A stretch of 64,000 nucleotides of DNA from positions 31,058 through 95,057 of the forward strand of contig BTWA01000016.1 of assembly GCA_045863295.1 (NCBI GenBank), in the 5' to 3' direction. Positions 1 through 6,357 of the stretch are shown one piece after another. Within the stretch, counting starts at the first letter, position 1, and every line of letters starts with the position of its first letter. This DNA is from Candidatus Hydrogenedentota bacterium. Lineage in GTDB: Bacteria; Hydrogenedentota; Hydrogenedentia; Hydrogenedentales; SLHB01. The notes under the pieces are model-generated. The model made no database searches. It had not been told where the DNA came from and was given only the letters and a program-made list of their open reading frames with translations. Position numbers and translations under genes: made by a program.

Positions 1-488
1 AGGAAGGCTCGCATAGTCTGGAGGGTCGCGACCGATACGTCGTCCCACGCCGCGTGCTGCAAGCCACTCCATGGGTTCAGGATGTTTCCAGAAACGGTCG
101 CACCAGTCCCGTTGTGCGGTGGATGCCATAGGTAGAAAAAGGCCTCGCAAAGGTGAAAGACGCTCTTGAGTCCGAGACCAAATTTCCCGACACTGGCCCG
201 CTCGGCAGCCTTGTAGCCCAAACCGAATAGGCGAATCGCCTTTTCGTCCGCACCCGTAAATTTACCATCATTAACGAAGAAAACGGCAGGACCTCGCAGC
301 AACGGGTGAGCATCATCCGGAAAACCAGGGCACCAGCCGAAATCTAGGCAGGTGGCTTCCGCCGCGTCATCGGCGTTCTGTAAGATCTCCTTGATAATAG
401 GGAAGCCCTTGGCGTACCGGTCATGTAGGTTGTCCCGGATGAGCTGTATATGCGCCGCCGGGGGCGTTTCGAATCCTCTATTCGACAC
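1..488 (-). CDS. Sacsin-like GHKL (HATPase) N-terminal domain protein, 5' part only (runs off left edge)
   Basis: Manual translation from GTG at 488 (AGGGG upstream) is open to position 1: MSNRGFETPPAAHIQLIRDNLHDRYAKGFPIIKEILQNADDA...HPLLRGPAVFFVNDGKFT...SVGKFGLGLKSVFHLCEAFFY. ExxQNADDA, NDG and GKFGLGxKSVF are sacsin/GHKL motifs. Confidence 0.88.
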   Translation of the reverse strand, partial: MSNRGFETPPAAHIQLIRDNLHDRYAKGFPIIKEILQNADDAAEATCLDFGWCPGFPDDAHPLLRGPAVFFVNDGKFTGADEKAIRLFGLGYKAAERASVGKFGLGLKSVFHLCEAFFYLWHPPHNGTGATVSGNILNPWSGLQHAAWDDVSVATLQTMRAF

Positions 489-605
489 TAAGAGTCCCCT
501 GGTGTCATTCCTTATCAGCTACAGCCACACGACACAGTCGCAAGCTGTTCATTGCCTAATTTCGAGTCGCATGACTTCACTCTGCGGGAACTGCCGATGC
601 CGCAC

Positions 606-788
606 CTACCGAGTCTGATCTTCGCGATCTTCACTCTGCACGTACTTTTCCGCTGCCTCCCTCACGACCCACGCCAGGGATACTTTCTTCCTTCTGGCGA
701 TGCGTTCTAATGCCCTGTAGAGTTCGGCAGGAAAGCCAATGGAGGCCCGCACCAGCGCGCCCTTTCTCTTCGATTTGACCTTCTGCAC
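606..788 (-). CDS. CopG/ribbon-helix-helix transcriptional regulator
   Basis: RASIGFPAELYRALERIARRKKVSLAWVVREAAEKYV fits the RHH beta-alpha-alpha pattern. Likely start is GTG at 788, preceded by GGGAGAGG. Confidence 0.85.
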   Translation of the reverse strand: MQKVKSKRKGALVRASIGFPAELYRALERIARRKKVSLAWVVREAAEKYVQSEDREDQTR

Positions 789-800
789 AATACCTCTCCC

Positions 801-816
801 TGTGGTGATCACCACA
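801..816. promoter_or_regulatory. Perfect 16-bp palindrome, putative operator of the RHH gene
   Basis: TGTGGTGATCACCACA lies directly upstream of the RHH RBS; a second inverted pair CACC-GAATT-GGTG is at 820-832. Confidence 0.6.
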
Positions 817-1103
817 TTACACCGAATTGGTGCGTATCGGCAAAATTACGCCACCCCGGTATCGTGGCAGTCTGGCGGGAATAACAGGCTCCTAGCCGGG
901 AAGACCTTACTTTTGAGCAAACGGTACAGGGGAGCCGCTCACCAAGGAACGGCCGGTTCCAGGTAGAGAGGTATGCTCGTCGGGTACTAGCATGGCGACG
1001 ATCAGAAGAGCGAAGGTATGGCGGGACGGGCGGGACCGGCTGAAATTGAACTGCGTCAATAAGTTTACTTATTCGGAGCGATTCAATGCGGAGAAAACGA
1101 TAA

Positions 1104-2276
1104 GTGAAAACCAAAGAATGGCGAATGACTCGTCAAGAATTCTACGAGCATCTATGGAGCAAGCCCATGAAGGTTTTGGAAGAGGAACTCGGGATTTGGT
1201 ACGGCCAGATGCTGGGAATAATTCGAGACTACAAGATTCCTCAACCGCCGATGGGACACTGGATGAAGGTCCAACATGGAAAGTCCGCTCGCAAGCCGCC
1301 ATTGGAACCACTTCCCGGCAAAGAGGAAATCGTGTTGAACCTTTACGTGCCAGATGAACGTCCGTACGACGAGCAGCAGAAGCAGCAGGCGGAGGGCTTG
1401 CTCGCAAAGGATTCGAGCCCAGAGAAACGTATCGTCGTCCCGAATGAGTTGACCGACGCTCATCCGTTGGTTATGAGGGCGGAACGGAGTCTTCGAAATG
1501 CGAGTGCAAATGAAAGACAACTGTTGATCCCGTCTGCGAAGAATTGCCTTGATATTCGTGTGTCGAAGGAAGCTTTGTCTCGTGCGTTGCGAATCATGGA
1601 CGCACTGATCAAAGCACTGGAAGCCCGAGATATTGCCGTTGAACTTACCGGGGAGCGAGACATTCCGACACGCGTCATCGTCTTGGGAGAGACATTTGGG
1701 ATAGGCCTTGCGGAAAAGGTGGATCGGCGGGAAAAGGAACTAACGCCGCAACAAAAGAAGGAAAAGGAGTGGCACTCATGGATGTACAGTCGGCAAGAAT
1801 TCACGTACCATCCAAATGGTCAGTTTGTACTCAGCATCAAAGAAGGTCGCACAAGCTATGGTCGACAGAACTGGTCGGATGGTAAAGTGCAGCGGGTCGA
1901 AAACCTGCTTAACAAGTTCATCTGCGCGTTGTACCGTTCCGCGGTCACCGCTCGTTCGGACCGGATACAGCGCGAAATTGACGAAGCGAAGCGACTGGAA
2001 AAACAGCGGAGGAATGAAGAACTGCGGCGACTGCAGCAGATTGAGCGCGCACGACTCGAGAACCTGGAGAAGCACGCCGAATTGTGGAAGCGCAGCCAAA
2101 CGATCAGAGCGTATGTTGGGGCCGTCCAGGAGCGGGCCGACAAAGAGACGTTTACATACGGAGACCTTCCGGTGACGGAATGGATAGACTGGGCGCTTCA
2201 GCAGGCCGATCGCCTTGACCCACTCTGTGTGAGCCCTTACTCCGTGCTTGACGAGAAGGTAGACTCGTGGTGGTAA
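1104..2276 (+). CDS. Conserved hypothetical protein of genomic islands (N-terminal HTH-like region, C-terminal coiled coil)
   Basis: 390-aa ORF with GGAG upstream. N-terminal TRQEFYEHLWSKPM..L..ELGI......I...YKIPQPPMGHWMK resembles a family I recall near island integrases. C-terminal W..WA...AD.LDP motif. Confidence 0.75.
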   Translation: MKTKEWRMTRQEFYEHLWSKPMKVLEEELGIWYGQMLGIIRDYKIPQPPMGHWMKVQHGKSARKPPLEPLPGKEEIVLNLYVPDERPYDEQQKQQAEGLLAKDSSPEKRIVVPNELTDAHPLVMRAERSLRNASANERQLLIPSAKNCLDIRVSKEALSRALRIMDALIKALEARDIAVELTGERDIPTRVIVLGETFGIGLAEKVDRREKELTPQQKKEKEWHSWMYSRQEFTYHPNGQFVLSIKEGRTSYGRQNWSDGKVQRVENLLNKFICALYRSAVTARSDRIQREIDEAKRLEKQRRNEELRRLQQIERARLENLEKHAELWKRSQTIRAYVGAVQERADKETFTYGDLPVTEWIDWALQQADRLDPLCVSPYSVLDEKVDSWW

Positions 2277-2575
2277 TTGCACAACGAGACCTGAGTGAGT
2301 CAGCTCTGGGGTCAAGAACGACGTTGCGAACAGATTTCCTGCTCTTCAGGTGATACTCAATTTGATAATTACAAATTGACGACCATGGTGAAAATGGTTA
2401 AGATGGGAAGGTGGTGAGGAGCGAGCGTATCTCGCTCTGTTGTCGTAAGTTATAGATTTTGTAAGTACTTGTGGCGGCTTGGGTTAAGACTCTCATAACC
2501 CAAAGGTGCGGGTGGTCGTAACTTTCGAGACTCGGCCAGTTTACGTAAGTCAGAAGTGCCCAACTGATACTTGAC

Positions 2576-2812
2576 TTGATACACACGAAGAAAGCCCATT
2601 CAAGTTCCGAATCGCCATATATCTCCCCCAAGCAATTAGCCGCTCGGTGGTGCTGTTCCCGCTCCACGGTCGACCGCATCACGGCACGACACGAATTCAC
2701 TCGAGTGTGCCTCGGCGAAGGAAAGAACGGCATCGTGCGCTTTCTCGTCGAGGAAGTTGAGCAGTTTGAACAATCGCGGACAGTGCCGAAGCCGGCTCGG
2801 CGCTCCAGATAG
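2576..2812 (+). CDS. Excisionase-like helix-turn-helix (HTH_17/AlpA-like) protein
   Basis: YISPKQLAARWCCSRSTVDRI...GKNGIVRFLVEEVEQFEQSR is the winged-HTH pattern of MerR-like excisionases. Confidence 0.75.
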   Translation: MIHTKKAHSSSESPYISPKQLAARWCCSRSTVDRITARHEFTRVCLGEGKNGIVRFLVEEVEQFEQSRTVPKPARRSR

Positions 2813-3058
2813 CTCTGTTTCCGCCCGTCTCTTCCGCTGTTCGCAGTTACTCATTTCCGCTCGCACGCCGGATCGAAGAGAAATCAACGGCCCACACATG
2901 CTGTCATCGGTTAAGCTCAAGCTACCCAGGACGGCACCGGAATCACTCTATCCCAAATGGAATCGAGCCAATCGCAGGTGTTTTGTGATCTCTGAAACCT
3001 CTTGTCTTCTTCCGCCGCTCATTCAGTGCGGAGGTCAATTCTACAGGAGTCGACTAAG

Positions 3059-3472
3059 ATGCTTGATGATCGAACGCTGCCAAAGCATGTTGGAGAGCCC
3101 GAGCCTCCGCTTAGGTTGACTCGTGACGCCGACCTAGATGACAGACTCCTTGACGAGGTCGGCGGACAATTCCACCCAAGCGTAGACACCAGACTTGATC
3201 GGGATTCACGTGACCGCTTCATACTTTGCCCCCGTGATGAATTCATACCGGGACTTGGCGACCAATTCTGGGCCGGACGGCACAACTCTTTCCAGCCGAA
3301 TTCGGGCGATGGTTTTCTACCGGATCCGCATGACGGCTTTGCTCCAGGTTCACATGATGGGTTTCTTCATGGCACTGGCGATATTTTTCGGCCGTCCCCA
3401 GGCGATGCCTTTCTTCCAGATCCGCGCGATCGATTCTCGCCGGACTCTGGTGACGCATTTCCACCAGCCTAA
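3059..3472 (+). CDS. Hypothetical protein built from about 14 tandem 8-aa repeats (consensus D-x-F-x-P-x-x-G/R/H)
   Basis: AGGAG RBS before ATG 3059. Repeats DRLLDEVG GQFHPSVD TRLDRDSR DRFILCPR DEFIPGLG DQFWAGRH NSFQPNSG DGFLPDPH DGFAPGSH DGFLHGTG DIFRPSPG DAFLPDPR DRFSPDSG DAFPPA. Confidence 0.7.
   Translation: MLDDRTLPKHVGEPEPPLRLTRDADLDDRLLDEVGGQFHPSVDTRLDRDSRDRFILCPRDEFIPGLGDQFWAGRHNSFQPNSGDGFLPDPHDGFAPGSHDGFLHGTGDIFRPSPGDAFLPDPRDRFSPDSGDAFPPA
3140..3469 (+). repeat. Degenerate 24-bp tandem repeat (coding)
   Basis: 24-nt periodicity, e.g. GATGGTTTTCTACCGGATCCGCAT / GATGCCTTTCTTCCAGATCCGCGC / GATCGATTCTCGCCGGACTCTGGT. Conservation is stronger at the amino-acid level than at the DNA level. 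Confidence 0.8.
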
Positions 3473-3535
3473 TATGGTTGCTTACAATCTTCGGACGTAT
3501 ACGCTCAACACCGTAGTGCTTACATCCGACTCCGT

Positions 3536-3760
3536 CTACCGCGGGTCGCCCGTGCGGTCCTCGAGGGCCTCGTAGATGGCCAGCAGCGCCTTCTCCCGCC
3601 AGTACTCCAGCCGGAAGACCTCGACACCCACGTCCCGGCTAACCGCGTCCAGCGGCTCACCGTTCAACAGTCGTAACACCACATCGCACTTACGCTGCGC
3701 ACTCCAACGTTGCTTCGGCCCCAAGAGACCCTGCTTATCTCCCTTCGATTCCTTGCTCAT
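3536..3760 (-). pseudogene. IS3-family transposase orfA remnant, truncated, no catalytic orfB
   Basis: RWSAQRKCDVVLRLLNGEPLDAVSRDVGVEVFRLEYWREKAL matches IS3-type orfA HTH proteins. It stops early, before the usual leucine-zipper segment, and no DDE domain follows. Confidence 0.65.
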
Positions 3761-4085
3761 AACCCGTCCTCCTTGGTTCACAATTATCTCAAATTCGGAT
3801 CCAATAAAACTGAGCCCGGCTTACGCGTAATTGTTCACCAGTTTCGTGCTCTACGAGACATTTGAACTTTGCGGCAAGATGGAATCTGGTGAAAAACCGG
3901 CTCAGTGGCCTTCTCCAAGCTATTGTCCCTGCGTGGTTTAGCGAAGAAAATAGACGCGATGGTCCAGTTCTCACATCAAGCCGGAAAGGCGGAGGTCCGA
4001 ACGACCCTATGCGAGACCTCATTCAACGGTGCATGAAGGTCCCGAACACAAGCGAAAGCCTCGCCCCCTCCCATCCATTCCCGCG

Positions 4086-4115
4086 TTGCATCATTTATGT
4101 GGCATTAATTATGAT
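4086..4115 (+). promoter_or_regulatory. Putative sigma70 promoter of the HTH-recombinase/integrase operon
   Basis: TTGCAT (4086-4091) - 18 nt - TATGAT (4110-4115); ATG at 4123 follows 7 nt later with no Shine-Dalgarno. Confidence 0.45.
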
Positions 4116-4122
4116 AAGACTT

Positions 4123-4701
4123 ATGGACTCGAAGACCTTCACAGTTCGTGAAGTAGCGGAGCGGCTCGGCGTGGCAGCACCCACGGTATATCACTGGGTT
4201 GCCAACGGCGTGCTGAGACACACGCGGAAATCGAGACGAATTTTGTTTACTGATTCCGATCTTGTCGAATTTGCGCGATCACGCTACGTTCCGCGTCAAA
4301 GAATCAGACAAGGCCAGGCGGAAGACGTCTTGAATCCTCTGCGGCGGGGACCTCTCGGATATGCAATCGTCGAGAACAAGATTCGCTTGATCCCCGATGA
4401 GGCTAGGCTGGTCCGCTTTGTCTACGACGTTTACGCTTTGGCCGGTGACTTGGACTGGGTTCTGCGTTTCCTGAACACTCGCTCCATGTTTCCTGCGGAT
4501 GGCACTCCATGGACCCGGAAACTGCTGTACGCTCTGCTTTCAAACCCCATCTATAAGGGCAGGCTCCCCATAGCCAAACGGAAGGAACTCGCATCAAAAG
4601 TAGATTTTAGGCGTGAAGTCTTCCAGCCAATCGTGAGTCGCGAACTATACTCCCGAGTGCGAATCCTGCTCGACCGCGAGCAACGGAGTGATGAATCATG
4701 A
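4123..4701 (+). CDS. Fusion of an excisionase-like HTH_17 domain and a non-catalytic 'Recombinase' DNA-binding domain
   Basis: N-term FTVREVAERLGVAAPTVYHWVANGVL...RRILFTDSDLVEF. C-term GPLGY...PDEARLVRFVYDVY...LN...W....L..LLSNPIYKG...PIVSRELYSRV aligns by eye with the Recombinase domain of the adjacent LSR. No resolvase catalytic domain. ATGA overlap with the next gene. The track start (3862) is probably too far upstream. Confidence 0.85.
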   Translation: MDSKTFTVREVAERLGVAAPTVYHWVANGVLRHTRKSRRILFTDSDLVEFARSRYVPRQRIRQGQAEDVLNPLRRGPLGYAIVENKIRLIPDEARLVRFVYDVYALAGDLDWVLRFLNTRSMFPADGTPWTRKLLYALLSNPIYKGRLPIAKRKELASKVDFRREVFQPIVSRELYSRVRILLDREQRSDES

Positions 4702-6296
4702 AATCGTGCGGCTTGTACGTGCGTGTCTCGACAGACATGCAGGCGCAGGTGAGAGATGGCTCTCTTGACACGCAAGAAGACAAATTGCGCGCGTATGTCA
4801 AGCTTCGGGATTCATCGAAGGAGAGTTGGCAGGTCGTAGAGGTGTACCGTGAAGAGGGACGCTCTGGGGCAGATGATTCTCGTCCACAGTACACACGGCT
4901 CATTCACGACGCGCAAAGCGGCCGAATCAATGTTGTCCTGTGCACGAAATTAGACCGTTTTTCTCGGTCGCTTCTGGACTTTTACAAGGCATACGAGCAG
5001 TTCCAGGCGAAGGAAGTTGATTTCATCACGCTTGAGGAAAACTTCGACACCTCGACGCCCGCTGGTCGAGCGATGCTAAAGATCGCTCTCGTTTTTGCGG
5101 AGCTAGAGCGGGAGCAAACATCAAAGCGCACGAAGGACAAGATGGAGTGGCGGGCACAACAGGGCCTCTGGAACGGTGGACAGATACTCGGTTACGACAT
5201 CGACCCCGACGACCACGGTATTCTGAAGATGAATCCGGAAGAGGCTCAGATTGTTCAACTGATATTCAACACCTATCTTGAGACGCATTCGTACCTGAAG
5301 ACAGCGAAAGTTGTGAATGAGAAGGGGATTCGCTCGAAACAGTTTCACTCGCGTCGAGGAAACCTTCGAGGGGGGAACACTTTTCAGGACACCACGATAG
5401 GACACATCCTTCGGAATCCAGTTTACATCGGCAAGGTCACACACAACGGGATGATTTACGAGGGAAAACACGATGGCATTATTCCACCTCCATTGTGGGA
5501 AGAAGTTCAGGAGTGCATCAGACTATATGGTCCAAAACGGAGTGGCGGCCGACAACACCGATTACACGTTTTTCTTTTGGAAGGACTCGTTGAGTGTGGC
5601 TGGTGTGGCGCCGCAATGACTCCGAAATTTGCCCATGGACAAAACAAGAAGCGGTACTTCTACTACCAATGCTCGCGAAATGACCATCGGGGCAAAGATG
5701 GCTGCAAAATGAAGTATGTGCCGGCAGAGCCACTTGAACGTCTCGTATCAGAGCGTATAAAGGACATCGCAACCGACGACAACTTGCTCGAGGGGATCGT
5801 CCAAGAGGCAAACGAAACGTCGAAAACCGAGCGAGACGAAATCGCGAGGAAACGAAAGCTGCTGAGCAGACAACTCGCCGAAGTGAAGCAGACGGTCAAT
5901 AATTGGTTAGACCTAATCGGCAACGGTACGGCCAAGAAAACAGGCTCGGCCACGACGTTGCTGGAGCGGATCGGAGAGGGCGAGAAACGGCGGAAGGAAC
6001 TTGACCAAGGATTAATGGAGCTGGGTCTCCAGGAGGGGGAACTGAAGAAGAAAATTCTTGACGCCGAGATTATGCGGGACTCCCTAGACAGGTTCCGAGA
6101 CCTTTTTGACGAGGCTCAGGAAGAGGAAAAGAAATTCCTGCTCCAGTTGATGATAGCCCGCATCATCTGGACGCCCGAGGAAATAAAGATCGCCCTGTAC
6201 GATCGTCCGACCGATACAGGGCGATTATCGACCAACTCCAGCGTAAACCGCGACGGCGAAGTTTCGCTGGAGATCGCAAACTGGCTCCGCGGGTAG
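4698..6296 (+). CDS. Large serine recombinase (integrase): resolvase catalytic, Recombinase, zinc-ribbon and coiled-coil domains
   Basis: YVRVST catalytic motif, KLDRFSR, FAELEREQTSKR, LGY..PEEA..V, LRNPVYIG, CGWCG...YYYQC...GC zinc ribbon; 532 aa. Confidence 0.97.
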   Translation: MKSCGLYVRVSTDMQAQVRDGSLDTQEDKLRAYVKLRDSSKESWQVVEVYREEGRSGADDSRPQYTRLIHDAQSGRINVVLCTKLDRFSRSLLDFYKAYEQFQAKEVDFITLEENFDTSTPAGRAMLKIALVFAELEREQTSKRTKDKMEWRAQQGLWNGGQILGYDIDPDDHGILKMNPEEAQIVQLIFNTYLETHSYLKTAKVVNEKGIRSKQFHSRRGNLRGGNTFQDTTIGHILRNPVYIGKVTHNGMIYEGKHDGIIPPPLWEEVQECIRLYGPKRSGGRQHRLHVFLLEGLVECGWCGAAMTPKFAHGQNKKRYFYYQCSRNDHRGKDGCKMKYVPAEPLERLVSERIKDIATDDNLLEGIVQEANETSKTERDEIARKRKLLSRQLAEVKQTVNNWLDLIGNGTAKKTGSATTLLERIGEGEKRRKELDQGLMELGLQEGELKKKILDAEIMRDSLDRFRDLFDEAQEEEKKFLLQLMIARIIWTPEEIKIALYDRPTDTGRLSTNSSVNRDGEVSLEIANWLRG

Positions 6297-6357
6297 GACT
6301 CGAACCTACGACATGGTGGTTAACAGCCACCCGCTCTACCAACTGAGCTACCGCGGA
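6282..6357 (-). tRNA. tRNA-Asn (anticodon GTT), CCA encoded
   Basis: Reverse complement TCCGCGG TA GCTC AGTTGGTA GAGC G GGTGG CT GTT AA CCACC ATGTC GTAGG TTCGAGT CCTAC CCGCGGA G CCA folds into a perfect 76-nt cloverleaf. Confidence 0.99.

Follow-up and report, generated by a model that had tools for sequence, protein, structure and literature searches.

The recombination directionality factors (RDFs) described for large serine recombinases (LSRs), for example gp3, gp47, SprB and TP901-1 Orf7, belong to no common sequence family; they bind the zinc-ribbon and coiled-coil region of the integrase and switch it to recombination between attL and attR. Another set of small proteins, the Xis-type factors of the TIGR01764/HTH_17 family (Tn916 Xis, mycobacteriophage Pukovnik Xis, RdfS and phiRv1 Rv1584c), are single-domain proteins of about 55–120 amino acids (aa), whose small genes lie directly upstream of, and overlap, an integrase gene. 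Members of the excisionase family (lambda Xis, P2 Cox, P4 Vis, RdfS and Tn916 Xis) frequently double as directionality factors and transcriptional regulators, and are encoded directly upstream of int. Here, we focus on a two-gene integration module in 64,000 nucleotides (nt) of a Candidatus Hydrogenedentota genome (contig BTWA01000016.1; this whole stretch is termed the window), in which the gene for a 192-aa protein overlaps the start of an LSR gene at the end of a genomic island. We tentatively read the finding as an integrase together with a small DNA-binding accessory protein of Xis type, equipped with a second DNA-binding module: the 'Recombinase' DNA-binding domain (RD) of serine integrases.

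The small protein can be set beside several described systems, and it differs from each. It resembles the Xis-type factors in gene position and in its N-terminal helix-turn-helix (HTH) domain, which scores above both family cut-offs and has a matching fold; unlike known Xis proteins it adds a 110-aa LSR RD, and an Xis-like role for it here is a prediction from sequence. Residues 76–185 are homologous to the full RD (DBD1, PF07508) of LSRs such as the A118/LI integrase, solved with DNA (4KIS), and SPbeta SprA (9DXH), but this RD is free of a catalytic domain, zinc ribbon and coiled coil and lies C-terminal to a winged HTH. As with CcrA and CcrB of the staphylococcal cassette chromosome (SCC), one operon at a genomic island's end is made up of two neighbouring genes that descend from LSRs and point the same way; CcrA and CcrB are each a complete catalytic recombinase, whereas the upstream partner here has no catalytic domain. 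IS607-family serine transposases also combine an HTH_17/MerR-like N-terminal domain with a module derived from a serine recombinase, but IS607 TnpA joins its HTH to the catalytic domain and the small protein joins it to the RD. In the SSV1-type integrases of Sulfolobus viruses, which are tyrosine recombinases, attP lies inside the int gene and integration splits it; the LSR frame here likewise crosses attP and is split by integration, with the difference that SSV1 Int loses part of the catalytic protein while this LSR keeps its catalytic and core DNA-binding parts and loses only a ParB-type HTH. In a literature search, neither an HTH_17+RD protein, nor RD-only LSR partners, nor an LSR gene that spans attP and carries a detachable ParB-type HTH turned up, although absence from such a search is no proof of novelty.

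The small gene, as delimited by domain matches, a family alignment and the ratio of nonsynonymous to synonymous substitution rates (dN/dS), has the following layout.

4123–4701, + strand: small accessory gene, 192 aa (start ATG at 4123, stop TGA at 4699–4701)
4135–4284, + strand: winged HTH of excisionase type (residues ~5–54)
residues about 55–75, + strand: basic, disordered linker
4348–4677, + strand: complete LSR-type RD (residues ~76–185)

The sequence-only reading of this DNA had proposed an excisionase-type HTH joined to a Recombinase domain without a Resolvase domain, and the Pfam models bear this out. HTH_17 matches residues 6–54 (E = 2.3e-12; 47.4 bits, cut-off 27) and Recombinase (PF07508) matches residues 91–184 (E = 1.2e-8; 35.5 bits, cut-off 21.1), the latter over profile positions 1–100 of 102. 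No Pfam match to Resolvase (PF00239, even at E <= 1) or Zn_ribbon_recom (PF13408) was found in the small protein, as had been claimed for the catalytic domain and zinc ribbon; a coiled coil is absent too, the C-terminus falling directly after the RD. The protein is predicted to be incapable of catalysing recombination. Other model collections agree with this division: the NCBIfam family TIGR01764 ('excisionase family DNA-binding') scores 40.2 bits (cut-off 28.8), PHROG 95 ('integrase') covers residues 73–189 (E = 1e-13), and the NCBIfam CcrB model is the top recombinase match for the RD part, far under its cut-off. MerR_1 matches within the HTH only (residues 6–52), and the layout of the MerR family is not followed, since the HTH leads into a disordered linker and the RD, with no dimerisation helix or effector region. 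The start codon of the 192-aa reading is backed by homologues of exactly 192 aa and by the conserved promoter described below. The AlphaFold model has a mean pLDDT of 65, rising to ~80 within both domains, with residues 56–75 of the linker disordered; its top Foldseek match is the A118 LSR–DNA complex (4kis), albeit a weak one (E = 0.014), while the N-terminus matches the winged HTHs of MerR, Xis, RdfS and BldC. A search of the PDB with the small protein gave RD and HTH matches only, and no sequence similarity to any solved RDF.

The RD of the small protein had been aligned by eye with that of the neighbouring LSR, and the resemblance proves to be true homology, though a distant one. BLASTP between the two proteins found nothing significant, whereas hhalign of the two families (small protein 77–184, LSR 163–275) gave a probability of 95.7% (E = 1e-8) at 21% identity. 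The comparison points firmly to a true but old homology; a recent copy of the partner RD is ruled out by the same two results. Relative to the partner RD, that of the small protein carries a 12-residue basic insertion (LPIAKRKELASK). When the genome of the window was searched with the small-protein profile, the RD of the partner LSR was not among the matches at E <= 0.001, and this, together with the 21% identity, means that binding to the same half-sites as the LSR is not implied for the small protein.

The family is very small and tightly linked to one integrase lineage. HMMER over 1.84 billion representatives found just two full-length clusters at the 50% identity level (76% and 48% identical), the remaining matches being to the HTH alone, or to the RD alone inside ordinary LSRs; matches in several stretches, considered as further HTH_17+RD proteins, were all tandem HTH_17 repeats. 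A profile search of 5.8 billion proteins brought the total to six clusters at the 90% identity level. The linkage noted earlier at this single locus proved general: every homologue found lies directly upstream of an LSR, the next gene begins 4 nt before the small-gene stop, and it belongs to the same LSR subclade wherever sequence is readable. The overlap is ATGA in the window (LSR ATG at 4698), as first reported, and GTGA in relatives.

Selection on the small gene was measured on pairs spanning dS 0.1 to >2. Pairwise dN/dS is 0.16–0.29 for the small gene, alike in the HTH and RD parts, and 0.02–0.12 for the LSR. A ratio near 1 had been named beforehand as the mark of a decaying recombinase; the values obtained lie well below it, so the small gene is not decaying. 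For the same pairs, amino-acid identity is 76% in the small protein against 92% in the LSR, and 47% against 75%. The family alignment (A1) has a fixed length of 192 aa, no frameshifts and 79 invariant columns, and both the promoter and the 4-nt overlap persist in loci down to 44% protein identity. By these measures the small gene is real and constrained yet fast evolving, and not a relic; fast but constrained evolution is typical of RDFs and of regulators of mobile genetic elements.

Proteins that consist of an RD only were also encountered outside this family. P0118 was considered as kin and rejected, since its surroundings are phage-like and contain no LSR, and those of P0026 are uninformative. 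The chromosome of the window genome (G000) encodes a 184-aa protein (G000:C12:16008-16241; locus L003 1384-1938, - strand) with a helix-E tail and a Recombinase domain only (PF07508, E = 4e-18). Of the 61 genomes of the order, 55 show weak profile matches of this sort, usually one per genome; in the eight loci read, the proteins are 65–86% identical, and a gene for a GntR-type regulator adjoins in four. It is probably a recombinase DNA-binding domain that has been domesticated and is passed on vertically.

Conservation upstream of the small gene is confined to a short promoter region, seen in an alignment of seven loci.

4086–4115, + strand: conserved sigma-70-like promoter of the small-gene/LSR operon
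4086–4091, + strand: -35 element, TTGCAT
4093–4102, + strand: invariant motif ATTTATNTGG within the 17–18-nt spacer
4110–4115, + strand: -10 element, TATGAT, 7 nt from the ATG

Only the last ~45 nt before the ATG are conserved among these loci, some of which are only 44–48% identical in protein, and this pattern suggests a promoter at 4086–4115. A simple promoter scan missed it, since matches to consensus number 4/6 in the -35 and 5/6 in the -10 element and the spacer is 18 nt. The -10 element lies just 7 nt before the ATG, which points to a leaderless transcript of the operon. Several loci have GTG as the LSR start codon, and at all of the loci this codon overlaps the small-gene stop; a GTG start and a constant overlap argue for translation of the LSR by coupling to the small gene.

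The LSR ends inside the tRNA gene at which the island is integrated, and the sites used in recombination can be placed around this junction.

4698–6296, + strand: LSR in its integrated-state form, 532 aa (Resolvase, Recombinase, Zn ribbon and coiled-coil region)
6282–6357, - strand: tRNA-Asn(GTT), sole copy in the genome; integration target and B' arm
6262–6286, no strand: attR (P arm and putative crossover), from comparison of attR with attL
6262–6272, part of attR: outer P-arm motif TTTCGCTGGAG, 14 nt from the centre
6189–6225 and 6236–6272, no strand: two 11-15-11 inverted repeats within the last 110 nt of the LSR gene
G000:C17:5798-6212, - strand: 136-aa ParB-type HTH piece, whose frame continues from window 6282–6296

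The LSR has strong Pfam matches to Resolvase (E = 7e-38), Recombinase (3e-18) and Zn_ribbon_recom (2e-15), and Ser11 of its YVRVST motif is invariant across the clade alignment (A2); it is the LSR, and not the small protein, that weakly matches IS607 in the NCBIfam search. Its final 15 nt are the antisense of the tRNA-Asn 3' end, which supplies the last four codons and the stop. The same 15-nt overlap is found in a Candidatus Hydrogenedentales metagenome-assembled genome (L008), in G011, in G035 (L058) and in G061 (L072), the last of these a distant bacterium whose LSR is only 50% identical.

The title of the sequence-only reading called this a full LSR, a description that does not hold: the 532-aa form is truncated by integration and has lost a C-terminal ParB-type HTH. 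This follows from in silico joins at the crossover, made between the window LSR and the three P' arms of its own genome, and between the LSR of G011 and its three arms plus an arm from G005. All three joins in the window genome are open, at 668–672 aa, and the last ~136 aa are a ParB-type HTH (Pfam HTH_ParB E-values for the three arms: 4e-12, 2e-7 and 5e-6). The G011 LSR joined to either of the two outer G011 arms or to the G005 arm gives 669–672 aa with a ParB-type HTH tail; the innermost G011 arm gives a 714-aa frame with no recognisable ParB tail. In G033, a decayed LSR likewise reads through, without a change of frame, to such a tail (143 aa, counted from the Trp codon). The 668-aa joined product is collinear end to end with a metagenomic LSR, P0156 (666 aa; 49% identity over residues 1–661), which has Resolvase, Recombinase, Zn ribbon and HTH_ParB domains, and two more long ParB-tailed forms occur among the top 120 homologues. 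By this comparison the LSR frame crosses attP, and integration leaves residues 1–530 at attR and a 136-aa C-terminal domain at attL; in place of that domain, the LSR gains three or four residues encoded by tRNA sequence. In the 50% lineage (G061), attL, 54 kb away from the LSR, also has a ParB-HTH gene, but in a different frame and probably as a separate gene. The arm in G005 (G005:C52:19172-19192) is a perfect P' arm with an in-frame ParB-HTH piece, 24.7 kb from tRNA-Asn (C52:43868-43943); G005 has no close LSR, and the locus may be an island that lost its integrase.

The crossover was placed by comparing attR with attL in G000 (contig C17), G011 and G061, and with a junction in G033. The P' arm search found three copies on contig C17 of the window genome, including C17:23658, and the outermost, C17:34961, is preceded by the type of hairpin that follows tRNA-Asn in island-free relatives, which identifies it as attL. 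After the decayed LSR of G033 come TGGCTCCGCG and, next, non-tRNA sequence with dyad symmetry to the LSR-side arm, the layout of an attP-like junction. In G061, no shared block other than CT would leave the acceptor stem intact, and the crossover dinucleotide would be CT at 6285–6286 (tRNA positions 73/72). A displaced tRNA-Asn 3' fragment marking the left end was not found on the same contig by exact, BLAST-short or fuzzy searches, which is explained by a crossover at the CCA/discriminator end and by the position of attL on a different contig. Synteny with the congeneric, island-free G034 gave no empty site, there being no shared flanks. The right arm of the second inverted repeat is the P-arm motif, so that an extra inverted copy of the motif stands at 6236–6246, 15 nt outside the attR half-site. 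The first repeat (6189–6225) is followed on the minus strand by a T-run, and it probably replaces the native tRNA-Asn terminator, which integration moves to attL; at the same site in G021, with a distant LSR, the hairpins are kept and their sequence is changed.

Two further observations concern the tRNA itself. The T-stem variant GTAGG/CCTAC (tRNA-Asn T-arm, window 6293–6309; 30 relatives compared) is found in carriers of a >90% identical LSR, in the distant carrier of a 50% LSR and in G008, whose contig stops at the tRNA 3' end, and in none of about 25 island-free relatives. G035, with a 68% LSR, has the T-arm variant of its congener, which rules out that the GTAGG T-arm is element-borne tRNA sequence; the pattern suggests that attB recognition extends into the T-arm, attB preference being the likelier cause of the variant. 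At C17:35252-35337 (+), 290 nt outside attL, there is also a tRNA-Asn-like sequence with its own terminator, which retains acceptor, D-arm and anticodon-loop segments and has GC-rich hairpins in place of the 5' strands of two stems. It has no ARAGORN call and no Rfam family at threshold, and G022 (L045) has a similar element next to its tRNA-Asn. The sequence might serve as a decoy or second attB, or be a small RNA derived from a tRNA.

The small gene and the LSR close a right-end module that also encodes a second Xis-like protein.

589–6296, + strand: right-end module common to G011, L004 and L008 (blastn between two genomes; gene tables of L004 and L008)
2576–2812, + strand: stand-alone Xis-like winged-HTH gene, 78 aa (PHROG 66, E = 4e-8; weak HTH_17)

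This 5.8-kb module contains a ribbon-helix-helix gene, an open reading frame (ORF) of 390 aa, the 78-aa winged-HTH gene, an octapeptide-repeat ORF, the small gene and the LSR; the cargo to its left differs between elements. PHROG 66 is annotated 'excisionase and transcriptional regulator', and the region of 2576–2812 is 87% identical to G011.

The role that we tentatively favour for the 192-aa protein is that of an Xis-like factor that binds element DNA and controls excision, expression of the operon, or both. The small gene would be transcribed from its own conserved, probably leaderless promoter, and the LSR would be made with it in a fixed ratio through the coupling suggested by the 4-nt overlap. 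To judge from domain homology, the winged HTH and the RD, with the flexible basic linker between them, would both bind DNA. The protein would then act on element DNA, the operator-like ATTTATNTGG in its own promoter being the only candidate site observed, and might set both the timing of LSR synthesis in the integrated state and whether the LSR recombines attL with attR; the resulting factor would serve excision or directionality and autoregulation together. There is a precedent for a serine integrase with a small 'Xis'-named RDF, phiRv1 Rv1584c (Table 2, PMC4111918). Several points weigh against this proposal. The characterised LSR RDFs contact the zinc-ribbon/coiled-coil region of the integrase and do not bind DNA (PMC4111918), and the RD is without a known role in integrase contact by RDFs. 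If the small protein were a classical RDF, its constant 1:1 synthesis alongside the LSR should inhibit integration. Neither the promoter motif nor any shared 10-mer was found in the attL and attR arms. The 78-aa winged-HTH protein is a rival candidate for the classical excisionase or regulator of the element, and could be the true RDF. Finally, the three nearest LSR relatives outside the subclade have no small gene: P0157 and P0156 (57% identity), which have CBASS or Mrr cargo directly upstream of the LSR, and P0159 (50%). The sister LSR at 50%, the one with a readable flank, is also at the tRNA-Asn position; an 81-aa ORF overlapping its start was considered as a counterpart of the small gene and rejected, having no domain and probably not being a gene. 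The small protein is thus not needed for target choice, and on this comparison it is an add-on of one LSR subclade, dispensable for tRNA-Asn targeting in sister LSRs.

A somewhat unlikely alternative is that the small protein is purely a transcriptional autorepressor or activator of the operon, binding ATTTATNTGG between the -35 and -10 elements with help from the RD, keeping the integrase low in the integrated state and taking no direct part in recombination. The small gene is the first in the operon, the motif inside the promoter spacer is invariant in 7/7 loci, including those at 44–48% identity, its single occurrence in the island part of the window is this one, away from the att arms, and the N-terminus also scores as MerR_1 and folds like MerR-type regulators. 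Yet ATTTATNTGG may simply belong to the promoter, the protein has neither the dimerisation helix nor the effector domain of a MerR-type regulator, and a 50-aa HTH would suffice for repression, while the 110-aa RD is equally under purifying selection. That complete RD, homologous to those of LSRs, would instead be the working part if the protein were a non-catalytic structural subunit, a degenerate second recombinase in the manner of CcrA/CcrB, with its RD on an accessory site or half-site in the att arms, such as the inverted P-arm motif copy at 6236–6246, where it helps to assemble the synapse or blocks it. Co-translation with the LSR and the extra motif copy outside attR would both fit; we nonetheless consider this unlikely, given that the RD is only 21% identical to the partner RD and evolves ~4 times faster, against a tRNA-derived target that hardly varies, that the alpha-E helix and coiled coil through which LSR subunits interact are absent, and that sister LSRs work without the small protein. 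We think it quite unlikely, too, that gene splitting and the RD-bearing co-factor jointly set direction, the small protein switching only the truncated LSR to attL x attR. The excised circle would make the small protein and a 668-aa LSR with a ParB-type HTH tail, and this complex would integrate at tRNA-Asn; the integrated operon would make the small protein and the 532-aa LSR, free of the ParB-type HTH, and the winged HTH–RD protein would act as a DNA-binding RDF or subunit with the truncated form only. That the small gene is a decaying remnant of a second recombinase, or a mis-called ORF without function, is hardly credible. The lack of a catalytic domain and the very small family would accord with it, but dN/dS is low in both domains, the length of 192 aa and 79 columns are invariant, and promoter and overlap are kept to 44% identity, so that a remnant is excluded as far as sequence data can show.

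The mobile unit appears to be a composite array, and its extent could be followed in two genomes.

G000:C17:1-34961 plus C16:1-37353: composite array of the window genome, at least 72 kb, with three nested attL-type junctions
G011:C20:36826-193945: composite array of G011, 157 kb

The G011 contig carries three perfect P' arms on the same strand as the LSR, at 115, 146 and 157 kb from attR. The outer G011 junction is host-specific (its terminator arm), and both inner ones recur in identical form in the window genome; since inner junctions are shared by two genera and the outer one belongs to the host, the mobile unit would be a composite array, and the whole array seems to move as one unit between the two genera. 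The figure of at least 72 kb for the window genome spans both contigs, the ends of C17 and C16 (the contig of the window) showing no overlap.

The 37 kb upstream on the window contig are all cargo, with a defence-dense part at C16:1-31545 (upstream of the window, plus window 1–488). This cargo includes a SIR2-domain protein adjoining a Piwi-domain (Argonaute-like) protein, a DUF1156 methyltransferase, CBASS-type genes (ThiF/E1, SMODS and SAVED), a 2556-aa sacsin-like ATPase, and an HTH-SNF2-NOV_C helicase with other proteins of SNF2 or helicase type. On C17, the cargo of the outer segments consists of efflux genes of RND/CusCBA type and of genes for a P-type ATPase and hemerythrins.

Large serine integrases are major tools for genome engineering, and their chief limitation is the control of direction; the directionality factors known so far are small integrase-binding proteins without relation to one another. 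What appears new here is an accessory protein assembled from an excisionase HTH and an integrase-type RD, strictly coupled to one integrase lineage, together with an integrase frame laid across attP, from which integration removes a ParB-type HTH domain. If gene splitting and the small protein did set direction together, the recombinase would take its cue for one reaction or the other from the DNA's own state. The element carries 70–157 kb with defence and metal-efflux genes between genera of Hydrogenedentota, and would thereby account for sizeable horizontal transfer within this uncultured phylum.

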